A DNA stretch of 64,000 nt from an uncultured Rickettsiales bacterium (GTDB taxonomy: Bacteria > Pseudomonadota > Alphaproteobacteria > Rickettsiales > SXRF01), in assembly GCA_964405685.1 (NCBI GenBank), contig CAYOOP010000005.1, positions 108,713-172,712 on the forward strand, in the 5' to 3' direction. The position numbers and the translations under genes are program-made. This document shows positions 6,761 through 60,000 of this stretch, one piece after another. The notes below the pieces were generated by a model. The model was not told where the DNA came from, made no database searches, and saw only the letters and a list, made by a program, of their open reading frames with translations. How positions within the stretch are numbered: the first letter of the stretch is position 1; every line of letters starts with the position of its first letter.

Positions 6761-6848
6761 CGTCATTGCGAGGAGGCAGCGCCGACAAAGCAATCCAACC
6801 TTGTAGCTAGGAGAGATGCTGGATTGCTTCACTACGCTCGCAACGACG
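6761..6848. repeat. MITE-like palindromic element, family B, copy 1
   Basis: Terminal inverted repeats CGTCATTGCGAG / CTCGCAACGACG and an internal caatccaa...ctggattgcttc pair. Fills the gap between two convergent stop codons. Second copy at 39340-39433. Confidence 0.75.
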
Positions 6849-8060: not shown

Positions 8061-8570
8061 TTAAACGTAAGAAAATGCTGCCGCTGTAGCTTGCTGCCTA
8101 ATGATTTGTTTGAGCCGATCAGCAATTGACCCGCTGTCACCCTCTCCGGCACTCACTAAATTCTGCTCAACCAATGTGTCTACTAGTTTAGGTGTAAGAG
8201 ATTGGCTTAAGGCAACACGCATTTTTTGTGCGGTATCTGTAGAGATAATTCCGTGTCTAAGAAGATTGCCAACGGAATCGCTATCGCCGGTATAATAGCG
8301 ACATTGGGTATCTCCTAGGGTTGCAGACGCAAAACAATTTACATCCGATTTAGATAGATAAAACTCGTTGCCGGGTTGGAAAAATTGTTGTGTTTTAGTT
8401 TCAGCGGGATCATCTGTTGATTCAGGCTCCCATTTTAATTCGATGCATAGGGGTTGGTTATTTTCAGGAATTATTGATGTGTTGCGTCTGGAAATACCGT
8501 CTACCATAGCAATATCATTAAGGGTCTTCTCAACATCAGCGGTGGGAAAGAAACGTACTTGTGTGGGCAT
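8061..8570 (-). CDS. Hypothetical protein (169 aa), apparently AT-richer accessory gene
   Basis: ORF with a GGAGG RBS, 11 bp downstream of the small ORF 8582-8734. No motif recognised. Confidence 0.5.
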   Translation of the reverse strand: MPTQVRFFPTADVEKTLNDIAMVDGISRRNTSIIPENNQPLCIELKWEPESTDDPAETKTQQFFQPGNEFYLSKSDVNCFASATLGDTQCRYYTGDSDSVGNLLRHGIISTDTAQKMRVALSQSLTPKLVDTLVEQNLVSAGEGDSGSIADRLKQIIRQQATAAAFSYV

Positions 8571-8734: not shown

Positions 8735-8797
8735 AAATATCCCCCGTGTTTTTAATTTGAAGGCGAAACTAAACCTTGCGGTGAATAGGGGCACTCA

Positions 8798-8822
8798 GAT
8801 TTTTGTGAAACTTTTGTGACAG
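8798..8822 (-). promoter_or_regulatory. Pho-box-like 7-4-7 direct repeat, copy 3
   Basis: Minus strand reads CTGTCAC-AAAA-GTTTCAC-AAAA, 63 nt upstream of ATG 8734. The same architecture recurs at 10994-11016 and 12294-12316. Confidence 0.45.
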
Positions 8823-8838
8823 TCGCGTTGGAGGTAGG

Positions 8839-8874: not shown

Positions 8875-9222
8875 ATGGAACCAAGCACCACGCCGTTTTC
8901 CGTGACTCCTTCCGCTGCTGCGCGCATTGCTGAATTGCTGCGCGATGAGCCGGCGGGGTCGGCATTTGTTGTTTCTGTTTTGGGCGGTGGATGTTCAGGG
9001 TTTCAATACCATTTTGATCTCGCTGTGAAGCCGCTGGAAGCAGGCGATATTGTGATTGAGGGGCAGGGCTCGAAAGTGTTGGTGGATGAGACCTCGATGG
9101 GGTTGCTTGCGGGGTCGGTGCTTGATTACACTGAAGACCTCGCGCAGGCCGGGTTTTCCATTAAAAACCCCAATGCTACCGCCAAGTGCGGTTGCGGGAA
9201 TAGTTTTTCGGTGAGTGTGTGA
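8875..9222 (+). CDS. erpA: Iron-sulfur cluster insertion protein (HesB/IscA family)
   Basis: 115 aa with GGGCSGFQY and the C-terminal CGCGNSF cysteine triad. Confidence 0.8.
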   Translation: MEPSTTPFSVTPSAAARIAELLRDEPAGSAFVVSVLGGGCSGFQYHFDLAVKPLEAGDIVIEGQGSKVLVDETSMGLLAGSVLDYTEDLAQAGFSIKNPNATAKCGCGNSFSVSV

Positions 9223-10004
9223 CTGTCTCTATCGCCACCTTCAACGTCAATTCCATCCGCGCGCGCCTGCCGAATGTGCTGGCGTGGCTGTGCGAGGCCA
9301 AGCCGGACATTGTGTTGTTGCAGGAACTCAAATGCGTAGATGAGCAATTCCCTGCGCTTGAAATTGAGGATTTGGGGTATAACTGCGCCATTTACGGCGA
9401 AAAAACCTATAACGGCGTGGCTATTCTCTCCAAATTCAAGTTGGAAGATGTTTCGCGCGGACTTCAAGGCGACGAGGCGGATACCCAGGCGCGGTATATT
9501 GAAGCACTGGTGCATACCCCTCTGGGTGTGATGCGTGTGGCCTCAGTCTATGTGCCCAATGGGCAGGAAGTAGGCAGCGATAAATTTGCTTATAAACTTA
9601 AATTTTTAGGCAGGTTATATGCAAAACTTAAAGCAATACTTGAATATGAAGAGATGGTGGTGATCGGTGGGGATTATAACGTCGCACCGGAGAATTTGGA
9701 TGTGTATGATTCTAGGCGTTTAAGTGAGACGGTATGCTTCCATTCCGAGGAGCGCAAGCGCTTGCGGAAAATACTCCACCTGGGGTATGCTGATGCCTTC
9801 CGGCAATTGCATCCGGATGATCCAGGTTTTTCCTGGTGGGATTATAGAGGTGGGGCATTTGAAGCCGGGCATGGCCTTCGCATCGACCATTTGCTGCTTT
9901 CGCCACAGGCGGCGGATCGCTTGACGGCGTGCGAAGTGCATACATCAGTCCGCGCGGCCGAAAAAGCCTCGGACCATGCGCCGGTGGTGGGGGTGTTTGG
10001 TTAA
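9219..10004 (+). CDS. xthA: Exodeoxyribonuclease III
   Basis: 261 aa with IATFNVNSIRARL, LQELK, GDYNVAP and SDHAPV motifs of the ExoIII/AP-endonuclease family. Confidence 0.85.
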   Translation: MTVSIATFNVNSIRARLPNVLAWLCEAKPDIVLLQELKCVDEQFPALEIEDLGYNCAIYGEKTYNGVAILSKFKLEDVSRGLQGDEADTQARYIEALVHTPLGVMRVASVYVPNGQEVGSDKFAYKLKFLGRLYAKLKAILEYEEMVVIGGDYNVAPENLDVYDSRRLSETVCFHSEERKRLRKILHLGYADAFRQLHPDDPGFSWWDYRGGAFEAGHGLRIDHLLLSPQAADRLTACEVHTSVRAAEKASDHAPVVGVFG

Positions 10005-10924
10005 TACGCGCGGACGTTTACGGCTTGTTGTGGGCCTGTTATGGTGCCACCACCTCTTAGTTTCGGGTCAGGCGTCCGATCCAGCGGTACTGTGGCAGAA
10101 CGCTGTGAGGCTTCAATCTGCTGCTCCCATGAAGTTTCGAGGGTTTCAAAGCGTTGCTGGCGTCGCAGCGATGCAAACACAGATTCAAATTCCTCCGCCG
10201 TCATAGCTATCACTTGACCCGTGGTGGCTTCATCTTTGACAAGTCCAGCAATCACATCCTGTTTTAGTCGTGCTTGTTGTTCAGGAGTAAGATCGGCGAG
10301 TGTGAACTCGGCGAATGCAGGCATGGTAGCTAATTCCGCGAGTTGTTGACGTCCTGTAACCTTAGGAGCGGTATGATTGTTAACCTGTATTTGCCAGTAC
10401 AGTAGGTCCGACAAGCTCTTTCTGTTGACTGCGGCATCCATTTCATTACGCCAGTGTTCCGTTAGTTCGGCATGGGTTGTCTCGTTTTTCCTTACTCTGG
10501 CTATAAGCATGTCGAATTCTGTTCCGTATGATCTCCGCCGTTCATCATCATTGGTAGGTGCAGCAAGCTGATCTCCTGCGTGTTTAGCCATAAAATTTCG
10601 GATGACGTCTGCTGTGGAATTATGGGTGCGATCTTCAATATACTGCGTTCTTAAAGTTGCAATTTCTTCGGGTGACAGGCTGGCAAGCATGACTTCTGCT
10701 TTTGCGGCAATTGTGGCGGAAAGACTGAGTAATTCCAAGTTATGTCCTGTAATACGATTGTGCGCTATTTCGCTTTTGTAATGACTAAGCTTCTTAAAGG
10801 CATCGAGCGGTGTTTGCGGATCAGCATCTTTCATCAGGCGATCGAATGAACCGGTGTCGTTTACGTCCATCCTGGCCTTGAGTGCTTGAAAGACCGGAAG
10901 TTCATTAAGGTCAATGTTAATCAT
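10001..10924 (-). CDS. Hypothetical protein P1 (307 aa), member of the tail-sharing family
   Basis: AAGGAG RBS. Two internal LA(S/D)L(S/T)PE(E/Q)...L(R/K) modules at aa 80-94 and 209-222. C-terminus is RTPDPKLRGGGTITGPQQAVNVRAY. Confidence 0.6.
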   Translation of the reverse strand: MINIDLNELPVFQALKARMDVNDTGSFDRLMKDADPQTPLDAFKKLSHYKSEIAHNRITGHNLELLSLSATIAAKAEVMLASLSPEEIATLRTQYIEDRTHNSTADVIRNFMAKHAGDQLAAPTNDDERRRSYGTEFDMLIARVRKNETTHAELTEHWRNEMDAAVNRKSLSDLLYWQIQVNNHTAPKVTGRQQLAELATMPAFAEFTLADLTPEQQARLKQDVIAGLVKDEATTGQVIAMTAEEFESVFASLRRQQRFETLETSWEQQIEASQRSATVPLDRTPDPKLRGGGTITGPQQAVNVRAY

Positions 10925-10993
10925 AAAGGACTCCTTCTGTTAGTTGTAGTTTGCCTTGCGTTTAACATTGCGTGGGAGGAGGCAGCAATGCAC

Positions 10994-11016
10994 GATTTAT
11001 GAATTTTTTGTGACAG
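10994..11016 (-). promoter_or_regulatory. Pho-box-like 7-4-7 direct repeat, copy 1
   Basis: Minus strand reads CTGTCAC-AAAA-AATTCAT-AAAT, 69 nt upstream of ATG 10924. Confidence 0.45.
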
Positions 11017-11020
11017 GGGC

Positions 11021-11063
11021 AAAGCCTCCGACCACGCGCCGGTGGTGGGGGCGCTGGGGTGAA
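11021..11063. repeat. Displaced copy of the xthA 3' terminus
   Basis: aaagcctccgaccacgcgccggtggtgggggcgctggggtgaa aligns to xthA 9963-10004 (aaagcctcggaccatgcgccggtggtgggggtgtttggttaa), stop codon included. Confidence 0.75.
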
Positions 11064-11098
11064 TATGTGTCGAATTCTGTTGAGAAAACTAGAAATTA

Positions 11099-11347
11099 AT
11101 GCCACAATCGGAGGCAGAGGTTTTGCTTATGCCTAGCATGAAAGAAATAACGGACGCGCTTGCTGTTCTGCCACTTGACGAACAAGAAAAGGTGCTGCAG
11201 GCGCTGCGCGCGGCTGACAGTGAGCGCACATTCTCGGAATTGGAAATAACAACGTTAAGAACAAGGGCGGCAACACCACCTGATGCTTATCAACCCTGGG
11301 AACGGGTGCGCGATAATATTTTGCTTGGGCTTATGTCCAAGCAATGA
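11099..11347 (+). CDS. Putative addiction-module antitoxin component
   Basis: 82 aa, or about 72 aa from MPSMKE at 11129. MKEITDALAVLPLDEQEKVLQAL resembles the small helical antitoxins that pair with ParE/RelE toxins. 4-bp ATGA overlap with the next ORF. Confidence 0.55.
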   Translation: MPQSEAEVLLMPSMKEITDALAVLPLDEQEKVLQALRAADSERTFSELEITTLRTRAATPPDAYQPWERVRDNILLGLMSKQ

Positions 11348-11667
11348 ATCCTCTTTCGCTCGTGGTCCATCCAGACGTAGCCTCAGACCTCAACTCTTTT
11401 ACAAAAAGCTATGAATACCTTGTACGCGGGCTGGGCACGCAGTTCGTGTTGGAGGTAGACTTTGTATTTGGGCGCATTGCTATTTTGCCGCGCTCATACC
11501 AGCTTTGTTTCGGCGAATTCCGGCGAGCGTTGCTGGATCGCTTTCCATTCGCGATAGGGTTTCGGGTGACAGACAAGGCGATTTATGTTGACGGAATCTT
11601 TCCAACCAAGGCCAGCCCTGACCGTATTGCAGATTTATTGAACGCACGCGCTGGTGGTGGTGTTTAG
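11344..11667 (+). CDS. ParE/RelE-family type II toxin
   Basis: 107 aa. RRALLDRFPFAIGFRVTDKAIYVDGIFPTKASP is a typical ParE/RelE C-terminal pattern. The last codons (ARAGGGV) lie inside a copy of the xthA 3' end. Confidence 0.6.
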   Translation: MNPLSLVVHPDVASDLNSFTKSYEYLVRGLGTQFVLEVDFVFGRIAILPRSYQLCFGEFRRALLDRFPFAIGFRVTDKAIYVDGIFPTKASPDRIADLLNARAGGGV

Positions 11668-11745
11668 CTAATACGCGCGGACATTTACGGCTTGTTGTGG
11701 GCCTGTTATGGTGCCACCACCGCTTAGTTCTGGGTCAGGCGTTTG
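11644..11745. repeat. ~100-bp repeat of the xthA-end / P1-end junction
   Basis: 11644-11745 aligns to 9975-10078 at roughly 90% identity by eye. It spans the xthA-like stop region and the last ~75 nt of the convergent gene. Confidence 0.8.
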
Positions 11746-12219
11746 CCTGGGGATTAGGACTAAAGATTTTGCCCATTTCTTACGTCTGTCGCTTAAAGAC
11801 ATTTGGCTGGTGTTGCGGATTTCATCGATGATAGGATCAACAAATATTTTACTAGAAGTTCTGTATCGATCTCTCGGACACAATGCAGGGTCAGATCCCT
11901 CAGGATCTGTGCGGTCCATCAAGTCCATGATCTCCTTTCGTTTCCAGCCCACTATTTGTTCCGTTAAGAATCCACGTAGAGGTTCCCATTGCTCATCTGT
12001 TAAGGACGCAAGTCGATGTTCTGCCTCCGCAGCCTTGCCGGATGAGATATATTCTCCGATAGGCGCAACCAAGGCGTCACGCTCCTGTTCGGTGCCAGAA
12101 AGAAGGGCCTTGTGTAACTGTCGAATAAGGTCTCTTGAGTGCACATACGTTAGCAAAACATCTAGGTTCTCTTCTGTCGACAATTGAGACGGCTCTGTTG
12201 GAGATGATATTTTGGACAT
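11668..12219 (-). CDS. Hypothetical protein P2 (183 aa), member of the tail-sharing family
   Basis: C-terminus QTPDPELSGGGTITGPQQAVNVRAY has its last 17 aa identical to P1. One LASLTDEQWEPLRGF module at aa 70-84. Confidence 0.6.
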   Translation of the reverse strand: MSKISSPTEPSQLSTEENLDVLLTYVHSRDLIRQLHKALLSGTEQERDALVAPIGEYISSGKAAEAEHRLASLTDEQWEPLRGFLTEQIVGWKRKEIMDLMDRTDPEGSDPALCPRDRYRTSSKIFVDPIIDEIRNTSQMSLSDRRKKWAKSLVLIPRQTPDPELSGGGTITGPQQAVNVRAY

Positions 12220-12293
12220 TGTTTAGGTCTTTCGCATTAAAAGTTTCAAGAGTCGGGAGATGGTACTGTGTCGCTTTATGCACAGCAATTAAC

Positions 12294-12316
12294 GATTTGT
12301 GAATTTTTTGTGACAG
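12294..12316 (-). promoter_or_regulatory. Pho-box-like 7-4-7 direct repeat, copy 2
   Basis: Minus strand reads CTGTCAC-AAAA-AATTCAC-AAAT, 74 nt upstream of ATG 12219, in the divergent intergenic region shared with the MarR gene. Confidence 0.45.
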
Positions 12317-12412
12317 TGGCTGTGGCCGTTGGTCTTGGTGGGGTGCAGCGTACATAAACCCTATCTTAACCACGATATGCTAGGATTAGCGGTGGATTAA
12401 CATGCCTGGAGA

Positions 12413-12880
12413 GTGGCTATGAAACAGCTTTATACCGAAACGATTTTGCTCATTGAGCGGCTGCACCGCCGGTTTTTAGATGTGGTTAATACTGAGCTGG
12501 AACGCCTGCGCATTGATGACATCAACAACGTGCAAACGCTGATTTTGTATAACATCAGCACGGAACAACTGACCATCGGTGAGTTGACCAACCGTGGTTA
12601 TTACCTTGGCTCCAACGTGTCGTATAACGTGAAGAAACTGGTGGAGAATAAATATCTGCTGCAGGAAAAAGCACCGCACGACAAGCGTTCGGTGCGGATT
12701 AAGCTCTCCGAAAAAGGCCTGAAGCTGTGCCAGCAGATTGATGCGCTGTATGAGCGCAATGTCGACGCGTTGAAAAACACTACGCCAACCGAAGCCGATA
12801 TTCAGCGGACTAACGATACGCTTTCGCGCTTGGAGCGGTTTTGGACCGATTATATTAATACGGCGTATAAGCTGAAATAA
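12413..12880 (+). CDS. MarR-family winged-helix transcriptional regulator
   Basis: 155 aa. LTIGELTNRGYYLGSNVSYNVKKLVENKYLLQEKAPHDKRSVRIKLSEKG has the MarR wHTH pattern. Start may be ATG 12419. Confidence 0.7.
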   Translation: MAMKQLYTETILLIERLHRRFLDVVNTELERLRIDDINNVQTLILYNISTEQLTIGELTNRGYYLGSNVSYNVKKLVENKYLLQEKAPHDKRSVRIKLSEKGLKLCQQIDALYERNVDALKNTTPTEADIQRTNDTLSRLERFWTDYINTAYKLK

Positions 12881-12884
12881 TTCA

Positions 12885-12972
12885 CGTCATTCCCGCGTAG
12901 GCGGGAATCTGTTCGCTTATAAAAATAGTGATTACTTTGCGAGTGGATCCCTGACCTCACGCGGGGATGACG
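12885..12972. repeat. MITE-like palindromic element, family A, copy 1
   Basis: CGTCATTCCCGCGTAGGCGGGAATC ... GCGGGGATGACG. Occupies the whole gap between the convergent MarR and thiD stop codons. Confidence 0.75.
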
Positions 12973-12973
12973 C

Positions 12974-13867
12974 TTATTTATGTTCCCACATATGCCACAG
13001 CGGGCCGGTGCCTTTGCCTAGTTTAGGCGCGTTTGTGATGGCGCCGGCGACGTAAGTGTGGGCGCGTTCCACCGCATTTTTTAAATCCATTCCGCTACCG
13101 ATAAATGTTGCGAGCGCCGAGGCCATGGTGCAGCCGGTGCCGTGGGTGTTTTTGGCCTTCAAGCGCGGTGCTTCAAAGACGGTGACGGTGGTGCCGTCAA
13201 AGAGGATGTTGAACACGTTCTTTCCCTCCAAATGCCCGCCTTTGACGAGCACGTTCCTGGGGCCAAGCTTGTGAATACGTTTTGCCGCTTCAATCATGTC
13301 TGCTTGCGAGATTATTTGCATTCCTGCCAGAATTTCTGCTTCAGGAATGTTGGGAGTAACTAAGTAAGCAAGAGGCAGGAGTTTGGTTTTAAGCGCAGCT
13401 ACCGCTTCTGTTTGCAGCAGTGCCGCACCACCTTTTGCGACCATGACGGGGTCGACCACCAACGGAATTGTTCCCCCCGCTTGCGGGGGGATACAGGGGG
13501 GAATACCCCCACCCACTGCGCTAACGCCTTTGGCGTAAGCTCCGTTACCCTCCCCCGCGAGCGGGGGAGGTTTACTAAGGGCAGATACCACTGCCTCAAT
13601 TGCCGCACTGGTCGAAAGCATTCCCGTTTTAATGGCATCCGCGCCGATATCGCTTAAGCACAATTTGATTTGCTGGGTGATGAACGTGGGTGGCACGTCG
13701 TGAATATCGAAGACGCCTTGTGTGTTTTGTGCGGTTAAGGCGGTGATCGCCGTCATCGCGTAACCGGCTAGGGCCGTTACGGTTTTGAGGTCGCCTTGAA
13801 TGCCGGCGCCGCCGCCGGAATCGGAACCGGCGATGATGAGAATGCGTGGGATCATACTAGTTGTCAT
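12974..13867 (-). CDS. thiD: Hydroxymethylpyrimidine/phosphomethylpyrimidine kinase with an in-frame repeat-derived insertion
   Basis: 297 aa with IAGSDSGGGAGIQGDLKT, VVDPVMVAKGG and THGTGCT ThiD motifs. An extra ~33 aa (PPPLAGEGNGAYAKGVSAVGGGIPPCIPPQAGG) is encoded by repeat D1. Confidence 0.85.
   Translation of the reverse strand: MTTSMIPRILIIAGSDSGGGAGIQGDLKTVTALAGYAMTAITALTAQNTQGVFDIHDVPPTFITQQIKLCLSDIGADAIKTGMLSTSAAIEAVVSALSKPPPLAGEGNGAYAKGVSAVGGGIPPCIPPQAGGTIPLVVDPVMVAKGGAALLQTEAVAALKTKLLPLAYLVTPNIPEAEILAGMQIISQADMIEAAKRIHKLGPRNVLVKGGHLEGKNVFNILFDGTTVTVFEAPRLKAKNTHGTGCTMASALATFIGSGMDLKNAVERAHTYVAGAITNAPKLGKGTGPLWHMWEHK
13470..13570. repeat. G/C-hairpin palindromic element, family D, copy 1 (inside thiD, in frame)
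   Basis: TTCCCCCCGCTTGCGGGGGGA and CCTCCCCCGCGAGCGGGGGAGG terminal hairpins. Its reverse complement matches 57886-58013 apart from a ~27-bp internal indel. Confidence 0.8.
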
Positions 13868-13926
13868 CCTGAGAGAGCGTAGCGACCGAAGGATCTAGAG
13901 ATTCTTCGCTTCGCTCAGAATGACAA
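13861..13926. repeat. MITE-like palindromic element, family C, copy 1
   Basis: ttgtcatcctgagagagcgtagcgaccgaaggatc ... gattcttcgcttcgctcagaatgacaa. Overlaps the annotated thiD ATG. Related copy at 63336-63403. Confidence 0.7.
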
Positions 13927-13941
13927 TAAAGAGAGACGGAT

Positions 13942-14433
13942 CTATTTGCAAATAGTGTAGGTCATATGGCCGAAGATGACTTCCACCTTATCGTGGCCAA
14001 AGGGCAGCAGGCATTGGCGGAATTTGACGTTGTTGCTTTTGCGGTCGGTGAATTCGCTGTTGACGATGAGGGGTTTGCGTTCGTGCATGATGTGTTTGTA
14101 GGTATCCATCAGCTTGGCAGCGGAGAGCGAGACGATTTGCGCCTCGGGGTGTTCGATGAGTTCTTCGCGATAGGCATCGATAATGCCGGGACCCAAATAA
14201 GTGTAGTTGAATTCCTTGTTTTCGAAATCGCGCACTTGGACAATGAAGCATTGGTGCCAGATGTTGTGCAGCGCGTTGTGATCGGGGTCGATGTCGTTTT
14301 CTACCGGCAGGCTGCGGTCATTGCGAATTTTATCCCAATAGTTGATGAGCTGCAGGGTGCAGCGGCGCTCGTCTTCCATATTGCGGGTGGTGCCGGTGCT
14401 GGTTGTGGTGACGGTTTGGAATGCAGGAGACAT
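13942..14433 (-). CDS. Small PAS-like (PAS_5/DUF1457-type) protein, paralog 1
   Basis: 163 aa. Shares a pattern with the next ORF: YW...R......P.E.DI.PD......W..CF.V.......F.YTYLG ... FRQCLLPFG. Confidence 0.45.
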   Translation of the reverse strand: MSPAFQTVTTTSTGTTRNMEDERRCTLQLINYWDKIRNDRSLPVENDIDPDHNALHNIWHQCFIVQVRDFENKEFNYTYLGPGIIDAYREELIEHPEAQIVSLSAAKLMDTYKHIMHERKPLIVNSEFTDRKSNNVKFRQCLLPFGHDKVEVIFGHMTYTICK

Positions 14434-14442
14434 GAACTAAGC

Positions 14443-14916
14443 CTAGATGATTTTATACCGTATGCCGCCCAAGATCGCTTCGACGCTGTCGCCGTTTCCG
14501 AGAGGGAGCAGGCATTGGCGGTAAAGCACCGTGCGGCCAAGCGCGTTGGTCAGGCCTCCCTCTTCGAGGACGGGCTTCTTGGTGTCAATGACTTTTTGAT
14601 AGCCTTTGCTGAGTTTCGAGGCGTTGAAATTCTCCAAACTATCGATGCCGCCGTTTTTGATGCCTTCGGCGTACATATAGGCAACGTTGGTGCCGAGATA
14701 GGTGTAATTGTAATCGGGTTGCAGGAGGTCTTGCGCGTGGACGAGGAAGCAATCGTCCCAGAGATCTTCGATGTCGTCGGGGTTGATGTCGGCTTCACAC
14801 GGCATCACCTTGTTGCCGCGCACACGTTCCCAATAGGCTACGAGCCTGAGCGTAATGCGGCGTTCTATTCCCGGTAGTGCAACCGCGTCTGGAGGTGGTA
14901 TTTCGTACATTTGCAT
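14443..14916 (-). CDS. Small PAS-like (PAS_5/DUF1457-type) protein, paralog 2
   Basis: 157 aa. Collinear similarity to 13942-14433 (YWERVRGNKVMPCEADINPDD...CFLV...YNYTYLG...YRQCLLPLG). Confidence 0.45.
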   Translation of the reverse strand: MQMYEIPPPDAVALPGIERRITLRLVAYWERVRGNKVMPCEADINPDDIEDLWDDCFLVHAQDLLQPDYNYTYLGTNVAYMYAEGIKNGGIDSLENFNASKLSKGYQKVIDTKKPVLEEGGLTNALGRTVLYRQCLLPLGNGDSVEAILGGIRYKII

Positions 14917-14969
14917 AGGTTTCTCCCTATCCTTGTTTCAAGCACCATTATAGCGCGAACTCGGTAAAT

Positions 14970-14986
14970 GCGGCGTTAAATGCCGC
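14970..14986 (-). terminator. Weak hairpin downstream of the small membrane-protein gene
   Basis: Minus strand reads GCGGC-ATTTAAC-GCCGC followed by ATTT. The stem is only 5 bp. Confidence 0.25.
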
Positions 14987-15008
14987 GGGCATTTATCTCA
15001 AATGCAAT

Positions 15009-15347
15009 CTATCTGTCGGCGTGGAAGTGGTGCAAAATACGGTGAAATATAGGGGCGAGGAATAGCCCGCCGCAGATGATGAGGAACAGCCCGCAGTAAA
15101 TTGCGTAGGCCGAGGCGAAGAGTTTTCCGGCCTCTGTGTGCAGCGGGTCAATCTCACCCATGCCGCCTAGGATCATCGAGGCATTCAGCAGCGCGTCGAT
15201 CCATGGCATGGATTCGGTGTAGTGATAGCCGCAGACTCCGACGATGAGGGAGATTGCAATCAGGATGAGCGTAAGCCCACCCCACGCCAACATGCGGTTG
15301 ATGAACGCAGCGTGTGAGATGATGGGTTTGGAGCGGTGTTCGAACAT
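15009..15347 (-). CDS. Small two-TM ion-channel-like membrane protein (112 aa)
   Basis: Track ORF 15009..15629 truncated to the internal MFEHRSKP. Two TM helices flank a pore-loop-like SMILGGMGEIDP. The upstream part of the track ORF runs through the mfd-tail remnant and into the 3' end of the same-strand parE-like gene in another frame. Confidence 0.4.
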   Translation of the reverse strand: MFEHRSKPIISHAAFINRMLAWGGLTLILIAISLIVGVCGYHYTESMPWIDALLNASMILGGMGEIDPLHTEAGKLFASAYAIYCGLFLIICGGLFLAPIFHRILHHFHADR

Positions 15348-15354
15348 GGGAGTT

Positions 15355-15450
15355 TTATACCATGGCTTTGATAAGTTGGCCAATAAACGGCTTAAGCTTC
15401 GGCACAATCTTCGTTTTATCCTCAAAATCCTCCATATAAACCAGCGATTG
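15355..15450 (-). repeat. Displaced copy of the mfd 3' end
   Basis: 15383-15450 matches mfd 16116-16183 with 1 mismatch in 68 bp. It continues in diverged form to its own stop (KPFIGQLIKAMV* versus KPFIGQLTAAVG* in mfd). Confidence 0.85.
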
Positions 15451-15456
15451 AGTGAT

Positions 15457-15771
15457 TTATCCCAAATGCAGCTGTGGTTCCATGCGCTCGTGGAGGATGT
15501 CGACGATGAGAATCTGGCCGTTTTGTTCGAAATAAAACACCACATGCTTTTCAACGGCAAGGCTGCGTAGGCCGAAGAATAACGCATCGCGAGGCTTGCC
15601 AAGTTGTGGAAACTCCCGCAAGCTTTCACAGGCGCTCATTAGAGTTTTAAGATAGATACGCCGTTGGTTTTCGCCGAAGTGATGCTCCGTATGTCTGCCG
15701 ATTTCAAGCAGACGGCCTTCCGCGCGTAGCGAATATTTCAACGCTAGAGACATGTTATTGTTCAGTGTCAA
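15457..15771 (-). CDS. parE: ParE-family type II toxin
   Basis: 104 aa, or 98 aa from MSLALKY at 15753. EIGRHTEHHFGENQRRIYLKTL ... HVVFYFEQNGQILIVDILHERM is typical of ParE. Confidence 0.7.
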   Translation of the reverse strand: MTLNNNMSLALKYSLRAEGRLLEIGRHTEHHFGENQRRIYLKTLMSACESLREFPQLGKPRDALFFGLRSLAVEKHVVFYFEQNGQILIVDILHERMEPQLHLG

Positions 15772-16018
15772 GACGCTTCATAACAGCTTCATAGGAGAGC
15801 GTCTTGACTTTACCCCGCATGACTTGTTCGACGCCTATTTCAAGCTCGCGCTTGAGCTCTGCAAGTTTTTGTTCGTATTGTTCAGAAGCAGCGTTTCCAT
15901 TGAGGCGGCGAATAGCTTCGCGCACAACCTCGCTGGCGTTGCCGTAAAGCCCGCTTTCTACCTTGCTGTGAATGATGTTTGCAAGTTCTTGGGTCAGAGA
16001 TATATTCATTGCAATCAT
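15755..16018 (-). CDS. parD: ParD-family (RHH/COG3609-like) antitoxin
   Basis: 87 aa. MNISLTQELANIIHSKVESGLYGNASEVVREAIRRL is the ParD N-terminal pattern. Lies immediately upstream of parE. Confidence 0.7.
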   Translation of the reverse strand: MIAMNISLTQELANIIHSKVESGLYGNASEVVREAIRRLNGNAASEQYEQKLAELKRELEIGVEQVMRGKVKTLSYEAVMKRLDTEQ

Positions 16019-16087
16019 GTGGCACCTCCATCTCGGGTGATGGTGCCATAAAACCCAAAAAATGTCAAACTTTGCGCAATAAATTGT

Positions 16088-19000
16088 TTAACCCACGGCG
16101 GCGGTTAACTGTCCTATAAACGGCTTAAGCTTCGGTACAATCTTCGTTTTATCCTCAAAATCCTCCATATAAACCAGCGATTGGTCGGGCTTCAACTTCA
16201 GGCGGGTGGGGTGTTTCCCGATGAAGGTAATGAGTTTTTCCACTTCGCGTACCGCGCGCTCTTTGAAGCTAATCACCGCGCCTTTCGGGCCGACATCGAG
16301 CCGTGCAATGGCGGCTTTGAAGCAGAGTTGTTTGAGGAGGACGGTGGAAAGCAGGTTTTCGACTTCTTCGGGAAGCGGGCCAAAACGGTCGATGAATTCG
16401 GCGTGAAGTGCTTCCACCTCCTCTTCCGTTTTCATGCTGGCGGCGCGTTTGTAGAGGCCCATCCGTAATTCTAAATCCGCCACGTAGGTTTCGGGGATCA
16501 AGACCGGAATGCCAAGGTTGATTTGGGGAGACCACTCCTGCACACGCACTTCTGCTTCGCCGCTGTGCTTGAGTGCGGCAATCGCCTCTTCCAACATATG
16601 TTGATAAAGCTCGACACCGACTTCGCGAATATGGCCGGATTGTTCTTCGCCGACGAGATTTCCAAATCCGCGGATGTCCATGTCGTGGCTGGCAAGCGTG
16701 AATCCGGCGCCTAGGCGGTCAAGCGTTTGCATGACTTCGAGACGGCGCACCGCTTGGTGGGTGATGGTTTGCGGGGGGATAATAAAATACGCATACGCCC
16801 GCTGCTTGCCGCGACCGACACGGCCGCGCATTTGGTAGAGCTGGCCGAGGCCAAAACGATCGGCGCGGTTGATAATAATCGTGTTGGCGGTTTGTACATC
16901 AAGGCCAGATTCGATGATGGAGGTGGAAATCAGCACGTCGACCTCGCCGTCGTAAAACTTCGTCATGATGGATTCGAGTTCGCTTGGGCTCATCTGTCCG
17001 TGCGCGAGCGCGAAGGAAAGTTCGGGCGTAAGCTCGCGCATTTGCTTGTACAAATCATCCATATCGGCGATGCGCGGGGTGACGATGAAGCTGCGGCCGC
17101 CGCGGTGTTTTTCGCGCATCAACGCTTCGCGGATGATGACGGGGTCAAACGGCATGACGAAGCTGCGGATGGCGAGGCGATCAATGGGTGGTGTCGTAAT
17201 CAAACTCAAATCGCGCACGCCGGAGAGGGCGAGTTGCAGCGTGCGCGGAATGGGCGTTGCCGTAAGTGTCAGCACGTGCACGTCGGTTTTCAATTCCTTC
17301 AAACGCTCTTTTTGTTTCACGCCGAAATGCTGTTCTTCATCGACTATCACGAGGCCGAGGTTTTTGAACTCAATGCCTTTGGCAAGCAGTGCATGTGTGC
17401 CGATGACGATGTCGATGGTGCCATCAGCAATGCCTTCTTTCGTGGCTTTTTGAGTGTTAGCATCTACTAGCCGTGAAAGCTGGCTGACGCGAATGGGGAA
17501 ATCGGCGAAGCGATTTTTAAACAGAGTATAATGCTGGCGTGCGAGGAGACTCGTGGGGACGATAATCGCCACTTGGCGATTAGTTGTCAGTTGACAGTTG
17601 TCAGTTGACAGGAACGCTTCACTGTCAACTGGTAACTGGTGACTGGTAACTACCGCGAAAGCGGCGCGCAGTGCCACTTCGGTTTTGCCGAAGCCGACGT
17701 CGCCGCAGACCAGACGGTCCATAGGTTTGCCGCTGTTTAAGTCGGCAAGCACATCGTCAATGGCACGTGCCTGATCTTCCGTTTCGGCAAAGCCGAAGCC
17801 ACGTGAAAATTCTTCAAGCGTGCCGCTTTCGGCGTGGATGCGTGCACCTGCTTTGAGCGCGCGCTGCGCGGCGGTTTTGATGAGTGCTTCAGCTGCAAGC
17901 TGGATGCGCTCTTTCATACGCGATTTACGCATTTGCCACTGCGCGGCACCGAGTTTATCGAGCGCTACACCTTCGGTTTCCGAGCCGAAGTGCGACAGCA
18001 CATCCATGTTCTCTACGGGTACAAAAAGCTTATCGTCATTATCGTAAATGATTTTCAGGCAATCATGTGCTGCGCCGAGCACGTTCAGTGTTTCCAGTGT
18101 TTCAAACCGGCCGATGCCGTGTTCGCGATGTACCACCAATTCGCCGTATGCGAACTGCGCGGCTTCTTGCAAAAAGACATCGGTTTTCTTTTTGCTTTTG
18201 CGATCTGCAATCCGCACGCCGAGCAACTCGGTTTCGGTCAAGATGGTAAAATCAGGTGTAGCAAAACCTTTCGCCAGCGGTAGATGCGCAACGCCAACGC
18301 CGTGTTCAGGAATGCTTTCAAGATTGTGGAGATGATGCAGATTAATCGCGTCAATCCCCTCAATACGCAAGCGCTCACGCAGGCGATCCGCCGAGCCGCG
18401 CGTGGCGGCGGCGAGGATGGTAGGGGTCGCTGAAAGCCTCTGTTTCAGGGCGGCGTAGGGGTTGGAATCAGTGATGGCGAGCACGGCTTGTGTGCGTAGG
18501 GATGTTTTGCCTTCGAAGGGGGTAAGCGTCACGCTTTCGTGTGCAGCGAGTTCGCTTTCGCTTAGGTAAAATGCTGCAGGTGGTAGCGGATGATAAGGGC
18601 TGGCGTGGGGAAGCTTGTCGGTGCGCAAACGTGCATCGTAATAATCCTGAATCAAGGCTTCGCGTTCGGCGAGGATATCAGCGGTGGTGGGCGCCCACAC
18701 GAGTGTTGCGCCGGGTGCGTAGTCTGGCAAGGTGGCGGTGGTTTCGTAGAAGAGAGGGAGAAAAAATTCGAGGCCGGGGATGCGCGCGCCGCTCGAGATT
18801 GCTTCATACATCGCACTCCCTTGTTGCTGCGCGCCGAAGTGTTCGCGGTAGCGTGTGCGAAAGCATTCGATGCTGTCTTGCGTCAGCCAGATTTCGCTCG
18901 CGGCTTCTAAAAATAAACTATCCGCATCGGCAAGGCTACGCTGGGTGAAGGGGTCAAACCGGCGAATGGTTTCGATGGTGTTGCCGAAGAGATCGAGGCG

Positions 19001-24562: not shown

Positions 24563-24672
24563 CGTCATTCCCGCGAAAGCGGGAATCTAGCGTCCGCCGT
24601 CTGGCGGACAAGAAGCAACCTTTTTACGGCGTAGACACGCCTTACTGGATCCCGTCTTTCGACGGGATGACG
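24563..24672. repeat. MITE-like palindromic element, family A, copy 2
   Basis: CGTCATTCCCGCGAAAGCGGGAATC ... CCCGTCTTTCGACGGGATGACG. Fills the gap between the convergent rpoN and ispB stops. Confidence 0.75.
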
Positions 24673-38865: not shown

Positions 38866-39383
38866 AGCTCTTAAACAGGGCCGAAGCTTTTAGCAAAAAA
38901 CAGCGCGAGCGGGCGCGGGAGCGCCGCAAACGGCCGATGTCGCCGTTTGGTGTAGGCTATGGCTCGTTTCATGAACGCATGATTGCGGCGATGGTCGATT
39001 TGCTGCTGGTTAGTTTCGTGACGACGCCGCTGATGCAGCCTCCCATCAACGCGGAGGTCTGGGCGATGAATTCCTTGGTGCAAGCGGTGGTGATTGGAAC
39101 GTATTGCCTCACCTGGTGGTATTTCTACGCGGCGACGCCGGGGAAGATGATTTTCCGTCTGCACATCGTCGATATGAAAACCGGATTGCCGATCAAGCGC
39201 CCGCAGGCAATGAAGCGTATCGTGGCCTACGTGCTATCCACGGTTTCTATCATCGGGATTTTCTGGATGCTATGGAACAAAGACCGTCGTTGTCTGCATG
39301 ATCTTATCGCAGAAACGGCGGTGGTGAAACGGCCAAAAACGTCATTGCGAGGAGGTGAAACCGACGCGGCAATCCAGCCCTGA
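38850..39383 (+). CDS. RDD-family membrane protein with a MITE-encoded C-terminal tail
   Basis: TM-rich protein with a WNKDRRCLHDLIAETAV (RDD-type) motif. The last 14 aa (SLRGGETDAAIQP) are encoded by repeat B2. Confidence 0.55.
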   Translation: MQKLLELLNRAEAFSKKQRERARERRKRPMSPFGVGYGSFHERMIAAMVDLLLVSFVTTPLMQPPINAEVWAMNSLVQAVVIGTYCLTWWYFYAATPGKMIFRLHIVDMKTGLPIKRPQAMKRIVAYVLSTVSIIGIFWMLWNKDRRCLHDLIAETAVVKRPKTSLRGGETDAAIQP

Positions 39384-39433
39384 GGCTAGGAGAGATTCTG
39401 GATTGCTTCGTCGCTACGCTTCTCGCAATGACG
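39340..39433. repeat. MITE-like palindromic element, family B, copy 2
   Basis: CGTCATTGCGAGGAGG ... CTCGCAATGACG. Homologous to 6761-6848. Ends 1 nt before the tatA stop codon. Confidence 0.75.
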
Positions 39434-46440: not shown

Positions 46441-47397
46441 ATGCGTATCGGTGCGTTTGCTCTTACGGTTCTTGCATCGTCCACCGCCTATGCCGCTAGC
46501 TGGCCCAGTGCGCTGACCTATAAAGGCCAGCCGATTACCCGCTGTTTGGAAGCGTTGCCGATGGAGGAGGCGTCGCGCAGTAAGCCGCTGGATCTCGCGG
46601 CGTGTTCTGCTCCCGATCCGCAAATACAGGACAGCGAACCCAATCAAGATTTAATTTCGCAAGGCTTCATTGGTCGCAGCTACACCACGGGCGAGGGCGC
46701 AAATCCCGCCTATGGTTACTACAAGGTGCTTGGCCCTTATCGCGGTGGCTATTTGGTGTATGGTTTGTGGAGCGGCGGCGGCTTGGCCCAATTCTCTTCG
46801 CTCGATGTCATCAAACGCAAAGGCGACACCATTTGGGTCGAGCGCGAAATCGCGAGTGGCGACCGTTGCAATAATGGCATCACTGAAGCGTGGCTCGAGC
46901 GTGGCAAGTTATTTTATAAGGTCAACTTCACACCCTACGATATTATTGTACACGCAGATATTCCCGTGACGGTGAAAACCTCCGACGATTTGGAAAGCAC
47001 GCCAACCAGCTGTTTTGCGACCGCTACATTTGCGCAGTCGCGCGACAATCAGCCTGATTTTTATGTCATGGCGCTGAATCAGGAAAACCCTGATGCGCTA
47101 ATTTCCGATGTTGAGTGGACGCGAAACTACCGTTATCAGACCTGTTTTAACACTCTGTTCTTAGATGCGTTGCAGTCGGGCTCGGTTTCGTTTGATAAAA
47201 AGGCGCTCACCGCCTGGGTCAAAGGGTTTTATGAAACCTGCGTGAATCAAAAAGTGATTGATGAAAAACCGTTTGAAGTCAACCCCCCAGAGCCAACGCC
47301 ACAGTCCATTGAAGTAAAGCCAATGGACGCGCCGGTCGAAGTGCCGATGATTTATTCGGAGCCCGATAGCGGCGTGGATCAAGGAGACGGCCAATGA
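46441..47397 (+). CDS. Secreted hypothetical protein (318 aa) embedded between nuoG and nuoH
   Basis: Track ORF 46249..47397 trimmed to the ATG 1 nt after the nuoG stop. Signal peptide [18 protein letters not shown], several Cys, a Pro/Glu-rich tail. The stop overlaps the nuoH start. Confidence 0.6.
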
Positions 47398-48392
47398 TGG
47401 AGTTGATCAACATCCTCATGCCGCTGCTGATTATTGTCGGCAAAATCCTGCTGGTTGTCGTACCACTACTGATTTGCGTGGCGATGCTCACCTATTTCGA
47501 GCGCAAAGTCATCGCGGCGATGCAGCTGCGCAAAGGTCCGAATATGATTGGTCCGTTTGGGTTGCTGCAAGCATTTGCCGATGGCGCGAAATTGTTTCTG
47601 AAAGAGACGATTATTCCGTCTGAGTCCAACAAAGTGATTTTTTTCCTTGCGCCCATGCTTACGTTTTCGCTGGCGCTGCTTGGCTGGGCGGTGATTCCGA
47701 TTTCAGAGTATTTCGTGATCGCCGATATCAACGTCGGTATTCTTTATCTCTTTGCGATTTCTTCGCTCGGCGTCTACGGCATCATCATGGCCGGGTGGGC
47801 GAGCAATTCGAAATACGCGTTTTTGGGTGCGATTCGCTCCTCCGCGCAGATGGTTTCTTATGAAGTGTCGATCGGCTTTGTCATCGTCACGGTGCTGATG
47901 GTCGTCGGCTCACTCAATCTAAACGACATCGTGCACGCGCAGGCAGACGGTTGGTTTGCCTTCTCGCCGCTCTTTCCGATGTTCATCGTCTTCTTCATTT
48001 CCGCGCTTGCTGAAACCAACCGCCATCCATTTGATCTGCCGGAGGCCGAAGGTGAATTGGTTGCCGGTTACAACGTTGAATATTCATCCATGACCTTCGC
48101 GCTGTTTTTCCTCGGTGAATACGCGAATATGATTTTGATGTCGGGCATGGTGACCATCCTCTTCCTCGGTGGTTGGCTGCCCCCGCACCACGCGCTTGCC
48201 TTTATTCCTGGCGGTATTTGGTTTGCGCTAAAAGTCTCCGTCTGCCTCTTCGTTTTCATCTGGGCACGCGCCACCTTGCCGCGCTATCGCTACGATCAAC
48301 TCATGCGCCTGGGCTGGAAGATCTTCCTGCCGTTTTCGCTGCTGTGGGTGGTGGTGATTGCCGCTTGGGTCGTCTTTTTTCAGGGGCATTAA
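47394..48392 (+). CDS. nuoH: NADH-quinone oxidoreductase subunit H
   Basis: 332 aa with [17 protein letters not shown] and [18 protein letters not shown] motifs. Confidence 0.9.
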
Positions 48393-49013
48393 GTGATCGA
48401 GCACGCTATGACATGGCTGGTCGAATTGGTGCATAGCTTGGGCTATGTGGGGCTGTTTATTCTCACGGCGATGGAAAGTATGTTCTTTCCAATTCCGTCC
48501 GAAACTACGATGATTCCTGCCGGTTACCTCGTGCATCAGGGTGAGTGGAACATGGCGGTGGTGTGGATCATCGGCGTTACGGGTACGATTGTGGGTTCGC
48601 TTCTGAATTACTGGATTGCGTACATCATGGGCCGTCCATTTCTGGAACGCTACGGCAAATATATGTTCTTCGATCAGGCGCGCATGGCGCAGATGGAAGA
48701 GTATTTTAAAGTGCACGGAGAGATTTCGATTTTCACTTCACGTTTTATTCCCGGCGTGCGCCATGTGATTTCGTTCCCTGCGGGCCTTGCGAAAATGGAT
48801 CTGAAGCGCTTCACGTTTTTTACTGCTTTGGGCGGCGGCATGTGGATGACGGTGTTGATGTTCGTCGGCTATCAAATCGGTGACAATAAAGACTTGGTTC
48901 ACAAGTATATGCCCTATATAACACTCGCGTGTATCATCGGTGTGGCGGCGCTTATCACCTATTACGTCTGGCGCCACCGCAGCAAAAAGAAGGTCATGAA
49001 TGGCACTGTTTAA
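48393..49013 (+). CDS. dedA: DedA-family membrane protein embedded between nuoH and nuoI
   Basis: 206 aa with [19 protein letters not shown] and [16 protein letters not shown] DedA signatures. Starts directly after the nuoH stop and overlaps nuoI by 14 nt. Confidence 0.75.
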
Positions 49014-49488
49014 ACGTACCGCGCGCGCATTTTTGTTGACCGAGCTGGTGGTCGGCTTTGGCATCACGCTTAAATACATGTTCAAAAAACCGGTGACGAT
49101 CAACTATCCGTACGAAAAAGGCCCGCTTTCTCCGCGTTTCCGCGGTGAGCACGCGCTGCGTCGCTATCCCAACGGCGAAGAACGTTGCATCGCCTGCAAA
49201 CTCTGCGAGGCGATTTGCCCTGCGCAAGCGATCACCATCGAAGCCGAACCGCGCGAAGATGGCAGTCGCCGCACCACACGTTATGACATTGACATGACCA
49301 AGTGCATCTACTGCGGCCTGTGCCAGGAAGCTTGCCCGGTGGATGCGATCGTCGAAACCCCAAATTTTGAATTCGCAACGTTTACGCACGAAGAACTGCT
49401 CTACGACAAAAACAAACTCCTCGAAAACGGCGAACGCTGGGAACCGGCGATTGCTGCTAATTTGTTGAAAGATGCGGCGTACAGGTAA
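49000..49488 (+). CDS. nuoI: NADH-quinone oxidoreductase subunit I
   Basis: 162 aa with two ferredoxin motifs, [12 protein letters not shown] and [12 protein letters not shown]. Confidence 0.9.
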
Positions 49489-49496
49489 AACTCATA

Positions 49497-49935
49497 CCCT
49501 CTCCCGCGTGCGGGAGAGGGTTAGGGAGAGGGTGGATAGACAAGGAGAAACCATTGCGGGAAAACGCCAAACTTAAGCAAGCCAAGCAATTGCGGAAGCA
49601 GATGACGGAAGCTGAGAACTTGTTGTGGTATTATTTGCGCGCCGAAAGATTTTTGGGTTTCAAGTTTCGTCGCCAGGTGCCCATAGAAGGTTATGTTGCG
49701 GATTTTGCCTGTGTTCACCCTCCGGTCATTATCGAGGTTGATGGCGGTGGGCATACCACACAACAAGAAAAAGATAAAATACGCGATGAAGTCTTGCGAA
49801 AACGTGGCTATAAGGTATTACGTTTTTGGAATAATGAGGTATTCGAGAATATTGAAGGCGTGTCGATGACGATTAAAAATGCACTTGAGACTTCCCCTCT
49901 CCCCCACCCCTCTCCCGCACGCGGGCGAGGGGAGA
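49497..49935 (+). mobile_element. DUF559 gene bracketed by ~39-bp inverted repeats (family E), inserted between nuoI and nuoJ
   Basis: Left end CCCTCTCCCGCGTGCGGGAGAGGGTTAGGGAGAGGGTGG (49497-49535). Right end CCCCTCTCCCCCACCCCTCTCCCGCACGCGGGCGAGGGGAG (49893-49935) is approximately its reverse complement. Confidence 0.65.
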
Positions 49936-49952
49936 AGGTCTGCGTGTTATGA
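49554..49952 (+). CDS. DUF559 (Vsr-like endonuclease fold) domain protein
   Basis: 132 aa with a TTG start after AAGGAG. MTEAENLLWYYLR...FRRQVPIEGYVADFAC...IIEVDGGGH...VLRFWNNEV is the DUF559 pattern. The tail SPLPHPSPARGRGE is repeat-encoded, and the stop overlaps the nuoJ ATG. Confidence 0.75.
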   Translation: MRENAKLKQAKQLRKQMTEAENLLWYYLRAERFLGFKFRRQVPIEGYVADFACVHPPVIIEVDGGGHTTQQEKDKIRDEVLRKRGYKVLRFWNNEVFENIEGVSMTIKNALETSPLPHPSPARGRGEKVCVL

Positions 49953-52844: not shown

Positions 52845-52951
52845 GTCATCCCGTCGAATGACGGGATCCAGCGCTTCGCTCACGCGAAGCAAAAAGAGTC
52901 CTATTGCGCGGCAGACGCCGCTTACTGGATTCCGTCATTCGACGGGATGAC
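52845..52951. repeat. MITE-like palindromic element, family A, copy 3 (between nuoL and nuoM)
   Basis: GTCATCCCGTCGAATGACGGGATCC ... GGATTCCGTCATTCGACGGGATGAC. Occupies most of the 138-bp nuoL-nuoM spacer. Confidence 0.75.
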
Positions 52952-59975: not shown

Positions 59976-60000
59976 CCCCTCTACCCCGTGGGGGAGAGGG
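59976..60000. repeat. Solo family-E-like hairpin just after the addB stop
   Basis: CCCCTCTACCCCGTGGGGGAGAGGG, an imperfect hairpin related to the ends of the DUF559 unit. Confidence 0.5.

Follow-up and report, generated by a model that had tools for sequence, protein, structure and literature searches.

A toxin-antitoxin operon in the 3' end of mfd, bracketed by a native and a substitute gene end, in an uncultured Rickettsiales bacterium

How did a toxin-antitoxin (TA) operon come to lie between two copies of the end of mfd, the gene for transcription-repair coupling factor, and leave that gene intact? The question is raised by a 64,000-nucleotide (nt) stretch of contig CAYOOP010000005.1 from an uncultured Rickettsiales bacterium, referred to here as the window; all coordinates are positions within it. 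Our reading of the sequence gives good support to a foreign block of 665 bp in the mfd 3' end, which would consist of another lineage's last 29 nt of mfd and an apparently intact parD-parE operon. It is likewise well supported that Mfd is completed by the imported last nine codons and stop (...IGQLTAAVG*), that the native last nine codons and stop survive unused, and that 68 nt of native mfd are thereby present twice.

A repeat search found a direct repeat of 97 nt (15354-15450 and 16087-16183; 87% identity, blastn E=3.9e-33), which confirmed a claim of the initial annotation, that a 68-bp segment of the mfd 3' end is repeated with a single mismatch. This mismatch, in the inner 68 nt, is 15403 C versus 16136 T and is synonymous (GTA/GTG). 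The left copy had also been said to diverge further on and to reach an in-frame stop of its own; it translates as ...KPFIGQLIKAMV, the functional copy as ...KPFIGQLTAAVG, and both tails end in TAA. Next to the core, the native mfd end begins ATTGGCCAACTTATC and the imported one ATAGGACAGTTAACC. A search with a 62-nt core pattern gave exactly two hits in the window and none in 100 shuffles, and the right copy is Mfd coding sequence whose C-terminus aligns with homologues. The repeat is thus mfd sequence, as first proposed, and a dispersed element was rejected on these two grounds. Between the cores (15451-16115) parD and parE are the only genes, again as described at the outset; in minus-strand order the 665 bp hold the diverged mfd end (28-29 nt), an upstream region of 69 nt, parD, parE (end sequence ATCACT) and a 6-nt spacer. 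At the left junction, which lies 29 nt ahead of the native stop, insert and mfd are in register. The right junction, 6 nt past the parE stop, re-enters native mfd 97 nt before its stop and is 68 nt out of register.

The two tails differ in a way that indicates which was imported. Twelve of the 13 mismatches fall within the last 29 nt of the repeat (hypergeometric P=7.7e-7), where 41% of positions (12 of 29) differ between the attached and displaced ends; the best breakpoint is position 68, and none of 20,000 permutations reached the observed breakpoint statistic. Directly past the breakpoint, four codons in a row (Ile-Gly-Gln-Leu) carry five base changes, all synonymous, followed by four non-synonymous codons. 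Because of this synonymous run and the clustered mismatches, the two ends must have evolved separately under protein selection and been joined by recombination to a shared core; a local duplicate that had drifted would show changes scattered irrespective of coding. Codon usage was compared with a reference of 20 host genes (11,169 codons), in which ATA accounts for 3%, GGA for 5% and TTA for 7% of its codon family. The attached end (ATA GGA CAG TTA ACC GCC GCC GTG GGT TAA) has three host-rare codons in four (P=1.6e-4), and only 0.06% of host four-codon windows are as poor. In the displaced end (ATT GGC CAA CTT ATC AAA GCC ATG GTA TAA), the codons ATT/GGC/CAA/CTT are host-typical (P=0.61). The displaced stop lies 7 nt from the ATG of the next gene, a typical native spacing. 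The cassette has a GC content of 48%, versus 52.5% for the window, and the codon adaptation of parD and parE is at or under the lower edge of the host range. Because of the codon usage, and because the displaced end abuts the next gene, the attached distal 29 nt and parDE are imported and the displaced end native, an assignment we regard as well supported. The initial annotation had pictured a TA islet inserted in the end of mfd, with the incoming DNA restoring the gene end and the old end displaced. This picture holds up: the attached tail is rich in rare codons and the displaced one host-typical, the displaced stop and the synonymous codon run fit it, and a second locus with empty-site relatives, L142 in the survey below, has the same polarity.

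The inserted operon has the features of a ParDE type II TA module. ParE matches the Pfam family ParE_toxin (PF05016, 1.5e-16; 61 bits against a cutoff of 23) over profile positions 1-88 of 89, and matches Caulobacter ParE1 in PDB (3kxe, 5.9e-10). ParD matches ParD_antitoxin (PF03693, 1.2e-7) and TIGR02606 (2.6e-15; 56 bits against a curated cutoff of 46). ParD is encoded immediately upstream of ParE, in one operon, with 1 nt between the parD stop and the parE ATG; an alternative TTG start for parE exists at 15771, and database protein P0121 corresponds to the 98-amino acid (aa) form. With the toxin fold, a ribbon-helix-helix antitoxin and the operon order all present, the pair is, as judged from these matches, a ParDE module. 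The region upstream of parD reads as a TTGACA box and an imperfect palindrome, GGCACCATC...GATGGAGGTGCC, over a GGAGG ribosome-binding site, and the palindrome (16019-16086) is a candidate ParD operator, the promoter and operator assignment being putative. A consensus scan gave no minus-strand sigma-70 match around the cassette and no terminator in 15200-16300. Because mfd, parD, parE and the downstream open reading frame (ORF) share one strand with no terminator from mfd to that ORF, read-through is plausible and the insertion is probably tolerated transcriptionally. The downstream ORF has no Pfam or NCBIfam family and a host-like codon adaptation of -1.09. Database protein P0001, identical to the window's Mfd, has the full Mfd domain set. 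The surroundings in the window are ordinary core genome (argS, dGTPase, xthA, thiD, PAS proteins, sdhE-like, rpoN, the nuo operon, addB-like and others).

Table 1. Features at the mfd and xthA loci of the window, and second mfd ends at surveyed loci
Feature	Position	Strand	Basis or remark
mfd (transcription-repair coupling factor), intact, 1139 aa	16088..19507	-	ORF, TRCF domain
right copy, 68-nt identity core	16116..16183	-	within functional mfd, codons QSLVYMEDFEDKTKIVPKLKPF
imported mfd end plus one base past stop	16087..16115	-	encodes IGQLTAAVG*
parD upstream region	16019..16086	-	length given as 69 nt; sequence reading
parD antitoxin, 87 aa, ribbon-helix-helix	15755..16018	-	Pfam, TIGR02606
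parE toxin, 98 aa from ATG at 15753	15457..15753	-	Pfam, PDB
left copy, 68-nt identity core	15383..15450	-	begins 6 nt past parE stop
displaced native mfd end	15354..15382	-	encodes IGQLIKAMV*
hydrophobic 112-aa ORF, native neighbour of mfd	15009..15347	-	ORF call
xthA	9219..10004	+	Pfam Exo_endo_phos 3.9e-26
xthA functional 3' end	9963..10004	+	ends ...KASDHAPVVGVFG*
gene A, 307 aa	10001..10924	-	between xthA and second tail
second xthA tail	11021..11062	+	...KASDHAPVVGALG*, own TGA stop, two synonymous differences; 1 kb downstream of xthA
TA-like bicistron, 82 + 107 aa	11099-11347, 11344-11667	+	ATGA overlap; directly after second xthA tail
third, partial xthA tail	11647..11670	+	fused to 3' end of convergent gene B
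gene B, 183 aa	11668-12219	-	convergent
L108, mfd-end copy, 73 nt	starts -139 from stop		84% identity
L135, mfd-end copy, 764 nt	starts -742 from stop		83% identity
L141/L142, mfd-end copy, 172 nt	starts -208 from stop		82% identity
L161, mfd-end copy, 268 nt	starts -348 from stop		91% identity

Neither Mfd nor the cassette has near relatives in the databases. The best match to Mfd was 52% identical among genome contigs; among 5.8 billion proteins it was the source itself (100%), followed by one at 55%, and the Mfd C-terminus reached 63% against metagenome contigs. Exact look-ups of Mfd and ParE returned no record, and a cluster look-up gave singletons. A homologue search with ParE found only itself, with no database relative sharing five-residue words; the nearest homologues of ParD are 57% and 51% identical, and plasmid relatives of ParD and ParE at most about 51%. 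The nearest ParD and parDE relatives lie in other contexts, with no flanking repeats. In L081 (4070-7845) and L174, the closest parDE relatives stand with a GNAT acetyltransferase gene between rpsO and pnp. Since rpsO and pnp are as a rule direct neighbours, a conserved gene pair has here too received a TA insertion, this one without flanking repeats.

The initial annotation had seen the same architecture at xthA in the same window. What stands of this is that repeats of the gene's end lie beside a TA-like pair; the rest does not, since there are three xthA tails, the pair is not beside the functional xthA end (a gene cassette lies between) and its TA identity is weak. The third tail provides the last six codons and stop of the xthA-linked toxin, which has a weak, full-length match to ParE2 (PDB 8c26, E=0.005) and an AlphaFold model with a predicted local distance difference test score (pLDDT) of 50. 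The pair has no Pfam or NCBIfam match and is unrelated to the mfd-linked parDE, and the xthA repeats have only about 16 nt of contiguous identity. All four genes at that locus have codon adaptation values of -1.28 to -1.41, versus -0.96 to -1.15 for host genes. Both ends of the gene A cassette recur at the locus of the resident gene B, so that the cassette resembles an allelic piece of chromosome more than an element. Read most simply, DNA would have been added at the end of xthA twice in succession, with the later insertion closest to the gene and the gene A segment an apparent allele from a related chromosome.

Genes A and B are otherwise unrelated and belong to no family; their C-terminal 25 residues are 88% identical (...DPxLxGGGTITGPQQAVNVRAY). 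They also have in common a 38-nt upstream box (TTTxTGAATTTTTTGTGACAG; 10983-11020 and 12283-12320), of which a weaker third copy (8789-8826) lies upstream of an ORF at 8061-8570. Possibly these are modular genes with conserved ends, perhaps a common secretion signal and regulator site.

Displaced mfd ends are not confined to this genome. In 150 alphaproteobacterial mfd loci with downstream sequence, a blast comparison of the mfd tail with the downstream DNA found a second copy of the mfd 3' end 0.5-1.5 kb downstream in about four other lineages (L108, L135, L141/L142 and L161; Table 1), and the scan found tail duplication at no other locus. The inserts at these loci are mutually unrelated and the copies start at differing distances from the stop, which speaks against a single crossover site conserved among them. 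The displaced copies of L142 and L135 each extend to an in-frame stop of their own; Pfam matched no insert ORF of L135, L142 or L136. The L161 insert holds a ribbon-helix-helix antitoxin (PDB 6xrw_B, 5.6e-4) and, truncated precisely at the mfd stop, residues 1-31 of a RelE/ParE toxin (7etr_C, 3.6e-3). At L142, the DNA past the displaced end is that found directly after the mfd stop at the empty sites L144, L139 and L164; the displaced end is closest to the functional ends of these relatives (85% to L164), and the attached end is another allele type. These comparisons show, for L142, the same polarity as at the window's mfd locus. The right junction of L142 has about 35 nt of filler.

Two of these loci have features of their own. 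L142 (Ga0306924_10000221) and L136 (Ga0318546_10001262), both soil metagenome contigs, are 100% identical over a stretch of at least 4.6 kb that ends 208 nt short of the mfd stop, then 94% through the mfd end and 88% over the next 520 nt or so, after which they are unrelated. The point where their full identity ends is also where the displaced mfd end of L142 starts, and this suggests that one population has alternative haplotypes of the mfd end. In L108 (4807-6278), a metagenome-assembled genome (MAG), the mfd stop overlaps an ApbA/PanE-like gene, and a 73-nt mfd fragment (-139 to -66) is followed by an IS200-type Y1 transposase gene.

As background, 543 long genes in the surveyed loci yielded one further true case, at recG in L058. 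In that locus (2287-2912, a Rhizomicrobium MAG), the recG tail ...FERDEAVRLLRAG has a second, in-frame copy, ...FERDEAVWLLRAG, that ends in a stop of its own, and a single 166-aa ORF of no assigned family separates the two: the same architecture at a different repair gene. Tail duplication stands at 4 of about 130 mfd loci versus one true case in about 410 other genes, an excess that is not robust, with three hits from one clade. The survey suggests that displaced gene ends are a rare but recurring class of scar, present in about 1% of long genes and more than once at mfd. Among small ORFs downstream of mfd at 61 loci we found about three TA modules (CopG, MazE+PIN and HicB), all without tail duplication. 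A role of mfd as a TA hotspot is unsupported on these counts, and TA modules as such are not specially tied to the duplicated-end architecture.

The locus was then set against known classes of mobile DNA. A Pfam scan of about 50 ORFs across the window found no integrase or transposase domain, so the initial remark that no recombinase is visible holds within it. No terminal inverted repeats and no attC-like palindrome were found at the cassette, and no Rfam family in 9000-17000 or in four analogue loci. The duplication, at 68-97 nt and diverged at one end, comes with neither the inverted repeats and transposase of a transposon, insertion sequence (IS) or miniature inverted-repeat transposable element (MITE), nor the attC structure and integrase of an integron cassette; transposon, MITE and integron cassette were rejected. 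A literature search found no report of mfd as an attachment site, nor of TA cassettes flanked by duplicated gene ends, and none of the viral contigs encodes an Mfd end.

The closest known system is the element e14 (and phage 21) in the 3' end of Escherichia coli icd, which leaves an icdC pseudogene (PMC13626634). There, too, the housekeeping gene runs into the insert and takes from it a substitute 3' end with synonymous and a few amino acid differences, the native C-terminal piece ends up as a direct repeat beyond the insert, and recombination between the copies restores the native end (PMC13626634). Our locus likewise has direct repeats from the target gene's 3' end and a substitute end with foreign codon usage. 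However, e14 is about 15 kb long with its own integrase and excision functions, whereas the mfd insert is 665 bp, holds parDE only, and has no recombinase beside the putative att site or anywhere in the 64 kb. A cis-mobilizable element (CIME) is flanked by repeats, lacks an integrase and sits in the 3' end of a conserved gene (definition in PMC5704250). At a descriptive level only, the locus fits that definition, with attL/attR-like ends kept and integration and transfer genes absent, and tandem accretion, which is possible for CIMEs, is suggested at xthA. CIMEs are, however, defined by descent from integrative and conjugative or integrative and mobilizable elements (ICEs or IMEs) and by mobilisation through a cognate integrase; none of the relatives retrieved has a larger element at this site, and the mfd insert is far smaller and trimmed to one operon. 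The minimal mobile elements (MMEs) of Neisseria are similar in being small whole-gene cassettes between conserved genes, with no recombinase and dependent on host homologous recombination (PMC3787668). They differ in being recognised by strain-to-strain variation, and no duplicated, substituted gene end has been described for them.

Two recombination processes also bear comparison: homology-facilitated illegitimate recombination and transformation-generated merodiploidy, reportedly described by de Vries and Wackernagel in 2002 and by Johnston and co-workers in 2013. Both combine one in-register homologous junction with a non-homologous one and use no element enzyme, and a fragment bridging sister chromosomes can duplicate recipient DNA. 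Homology-facilitated illegitimate recombination differs in that it classically deletes recipient DNA rather than duplicating it. To our knowledge, merodiploids have so far been large and made through repeated sequences, and no link has been made from either process to TA cassettes that bring a substitute gene end. The TA cassettes of chromosomal integrons, as in the Vibrio superintegron, are similar as promoter-proximal, tightly trimmed TA operons that stabilise their neighbourhood. They differ from the mfd locus, which has no attC-like palindrome or intI and whose flanking repeat is target-gene coding sequence.

How the junctions arose is a matter on which we put the chance that host recombination made them, with no element-encoded recombinase, at about even. 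In one route, a homologous, in-register exchange in the gene end would be joined by a second junction that was illegitimate and out of register; this would be homology-facilitated recombination in a duplicative form, such as a fragment bridging sister chromosomes could give. In another, a Campbell-type single crossover would insert a circularised fragment bearing an mfd end. We favour host recombination because the starts of displaced ends vary among lineages, the L142 junction has filler and the gene A insert at xthA looks allelic, and also because one xthA junction lies within the toxin ORF and the window has no integrase. Several points weigh against this explanation. Formally the layout equals attL-cargo-attR, with a long identity block followed by an element-supplied gene end. 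Structures of the attL/attR kind are normally made by integrases, and a recombinase could lie outside the 64 kb, since the source contig is 174 kb long. Both TA inserts end almost exactly at the toxin 3' end, which random illegitimate junctions do not predict. The Campbell route needs an incoming tail that matched the host over 68 nt yet differed by 41% over the next 29 nt, and the duplicative sister-bridging route is proposed by analogy. In the collections searched, Mfd has no relatives closer than 55%, and there is no empty site for this lineage. L142 may be a decayed larger island, and L136 has the same insert followed by DNA of unknown kind.

Once in place, the cassette could be lost again, in that the 68-bp repeat would permit precise RecA-dependent deletion and restore native mfd. 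In known ParDE systems, ParE is a stable gyrase poison, and ParD is its labile antidote and a repressor. Segregants that lost the cassette would lose labile ParD and be poisoned by the persisting ParE, so that the cassette's own deletion would be penalised. By analogy with known ParDE systems, it may stabilise itself and perhaps its neighbourhood.

The main rival to host recombination, which we judge rather unlikely though not negligible, is a decayed or minimal site-specific element of the CIME kind: an island or prophage that targeted the mfd 3' end, bore a substitute gene end in its attP and has since shed its integrase together with everything else it carried but the addiction module. The 97-nt copies would then be attL and attR, which a related integrase might still recombine in trans. 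Such an origin gives exactly the architecture of e14 in icd/icdC (PMC13626634) and of a CIME that kept its att sites and lost its integration genes (PMC5704250), including the sharp identity block followed by an element-type tail with foreign codon usage. The recurrence of displaced mfd ends in other Alphaproteobacteria and the serial xthA tails, which resemble tandem accretion at an att site, also agree with it, as does the expectation that TA modules, being addictive, are the last cargo to be lost. Yet the window has no integrase, the literature no record of an mfd attachment site and the viral contigs no Mfd end; the displaced fragments of other lineages start at very different positions, and the xthA junction falls within the toxin ORF. 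The trimming, to 6 nt past the parE stop and 69 nt before parD, is also implausibly neat for random decay. An assembly artefact, with the mfd ends of two strain haplotypes put together in tandem, has to be considered for a single, metagenome-derived contig of 174 kb with no second observation, the more so as the same boundary has population variants in L142 and L136. It is very improbable, since the re-entry from the parE end into the core requires real reads across that junction, both junctions keep reading frames and compact operon spacing, and independent assemblies from different samples (L141 and L142) have the same architecture.

A history in which the mfd end was locally duplicated in tandem and then drifted, with parDE already resident or inserted later and no foreign end, has in its favour that tandem duplications are common and that the core is nearly identical. 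The mismatch clustering and codon usage effectively refute it: drift predicts scatter over the 97 nt where 12 of 13 mismatches fall in 29 nt, it would not yield four consecutive codons with synonymous changes only, and the copy under selection is the one with host-atypical codons. More elaborate is an actively mobile, recombinase-free unit of gene end plus TA operon, which would excise as a 733-bp circle by host recombination and re-insert by single crossover in naive copies of the gene, addiction favouring its retention. The near-identical 68-nt core is longer than RecA recombination generally needs, the predicted circle would be exactly the mosaic of host-like core and foreign distal tail suited to re-insertion, and two different TA pairs with gene-end repeats lie within 64 kb. 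However, the two pairs are unrelated, neither cassette has a second copy in the window, the nearest parDE relatives lie in other contexts with no flanking repeats, the three or so other TA modules downstream of mfd have no tail duplication, the xthA repeats have only about 16 nt of contiguous identity, and a small circle has no obvious route between cells. We consider such a unit improbable.

The mfd-parDE locus is real and close to known integration scars, a clean and essentially familiar trace of horizontal transfer; what is unusual is that the insert, placed within the coding end of mfd, carries a TA module only and no integrase. Being near those known scars in kind, the locus is of moderate general importance. 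Its value is as an unusually clean scar with resolved polarity, which shows how an addiction module can enter a conserved repair gene at its coding end and, by bringing a substitute end, leave the gene active. Displaced gene-end fragments with in-frame stops may mark past insertions and their direction, cheaply and without annotation. If host recombination without an element's recombinase is the right explanation, it can by itself build att-like structures, and some integrase-less "islets" are not decayed elements. Doubtful, and at most a speculation, is a wider class of recombinase-free, homology-targeted mobile cassettes made of a gene end and a TA operon. Its members would supply a housekeeping gene with a substitute 3' end, rely on host recombination in that end to insert and excise, and be kept by addiction, which would bias allelic exchange to additive (duplicative) over replacement outcomes. 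If true, such a class would account for the stacking of xthA tails and for the recurrence of displaced mfd ends in Alphaproteobacteria.

Several other features of the window were noted in passing. Tandem paralogous PAS_5-domain proteins of 163 and 157 aa (13942-14433 and 14443-14916, minus strand) lie just downstream of the mfd neighbourhood. A perfect 24-nt palindrome, CCCTCTCCCGCGTGCGGGAGAGGG, occurs in four copies (49497-49520, 49908-49931, 57885-57908 and 59977-60000); two of these bracket an ORF for a DUF559 (Vsr-like) endonuclease (49554-49952) wedged between nuoI and nuoJ, and another lies just past the addB-like gene. Between nuoH (47394-48392) and nuoI (49000-49488) there is a gene for a VTT/DedA-family membrane protein (48393-49013), another small non-nuo insert. 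Finally, two dispersed families resembling repetitive extragenic palindromic (REP) elements lie at gene ends (6761-6830 and 39340-39409; 24624-24671 and 52904-52951), each with 81% identity between copies and with internal palindromes such as GGATTGC...GCAATCC and CCCGTC...GACGGG.

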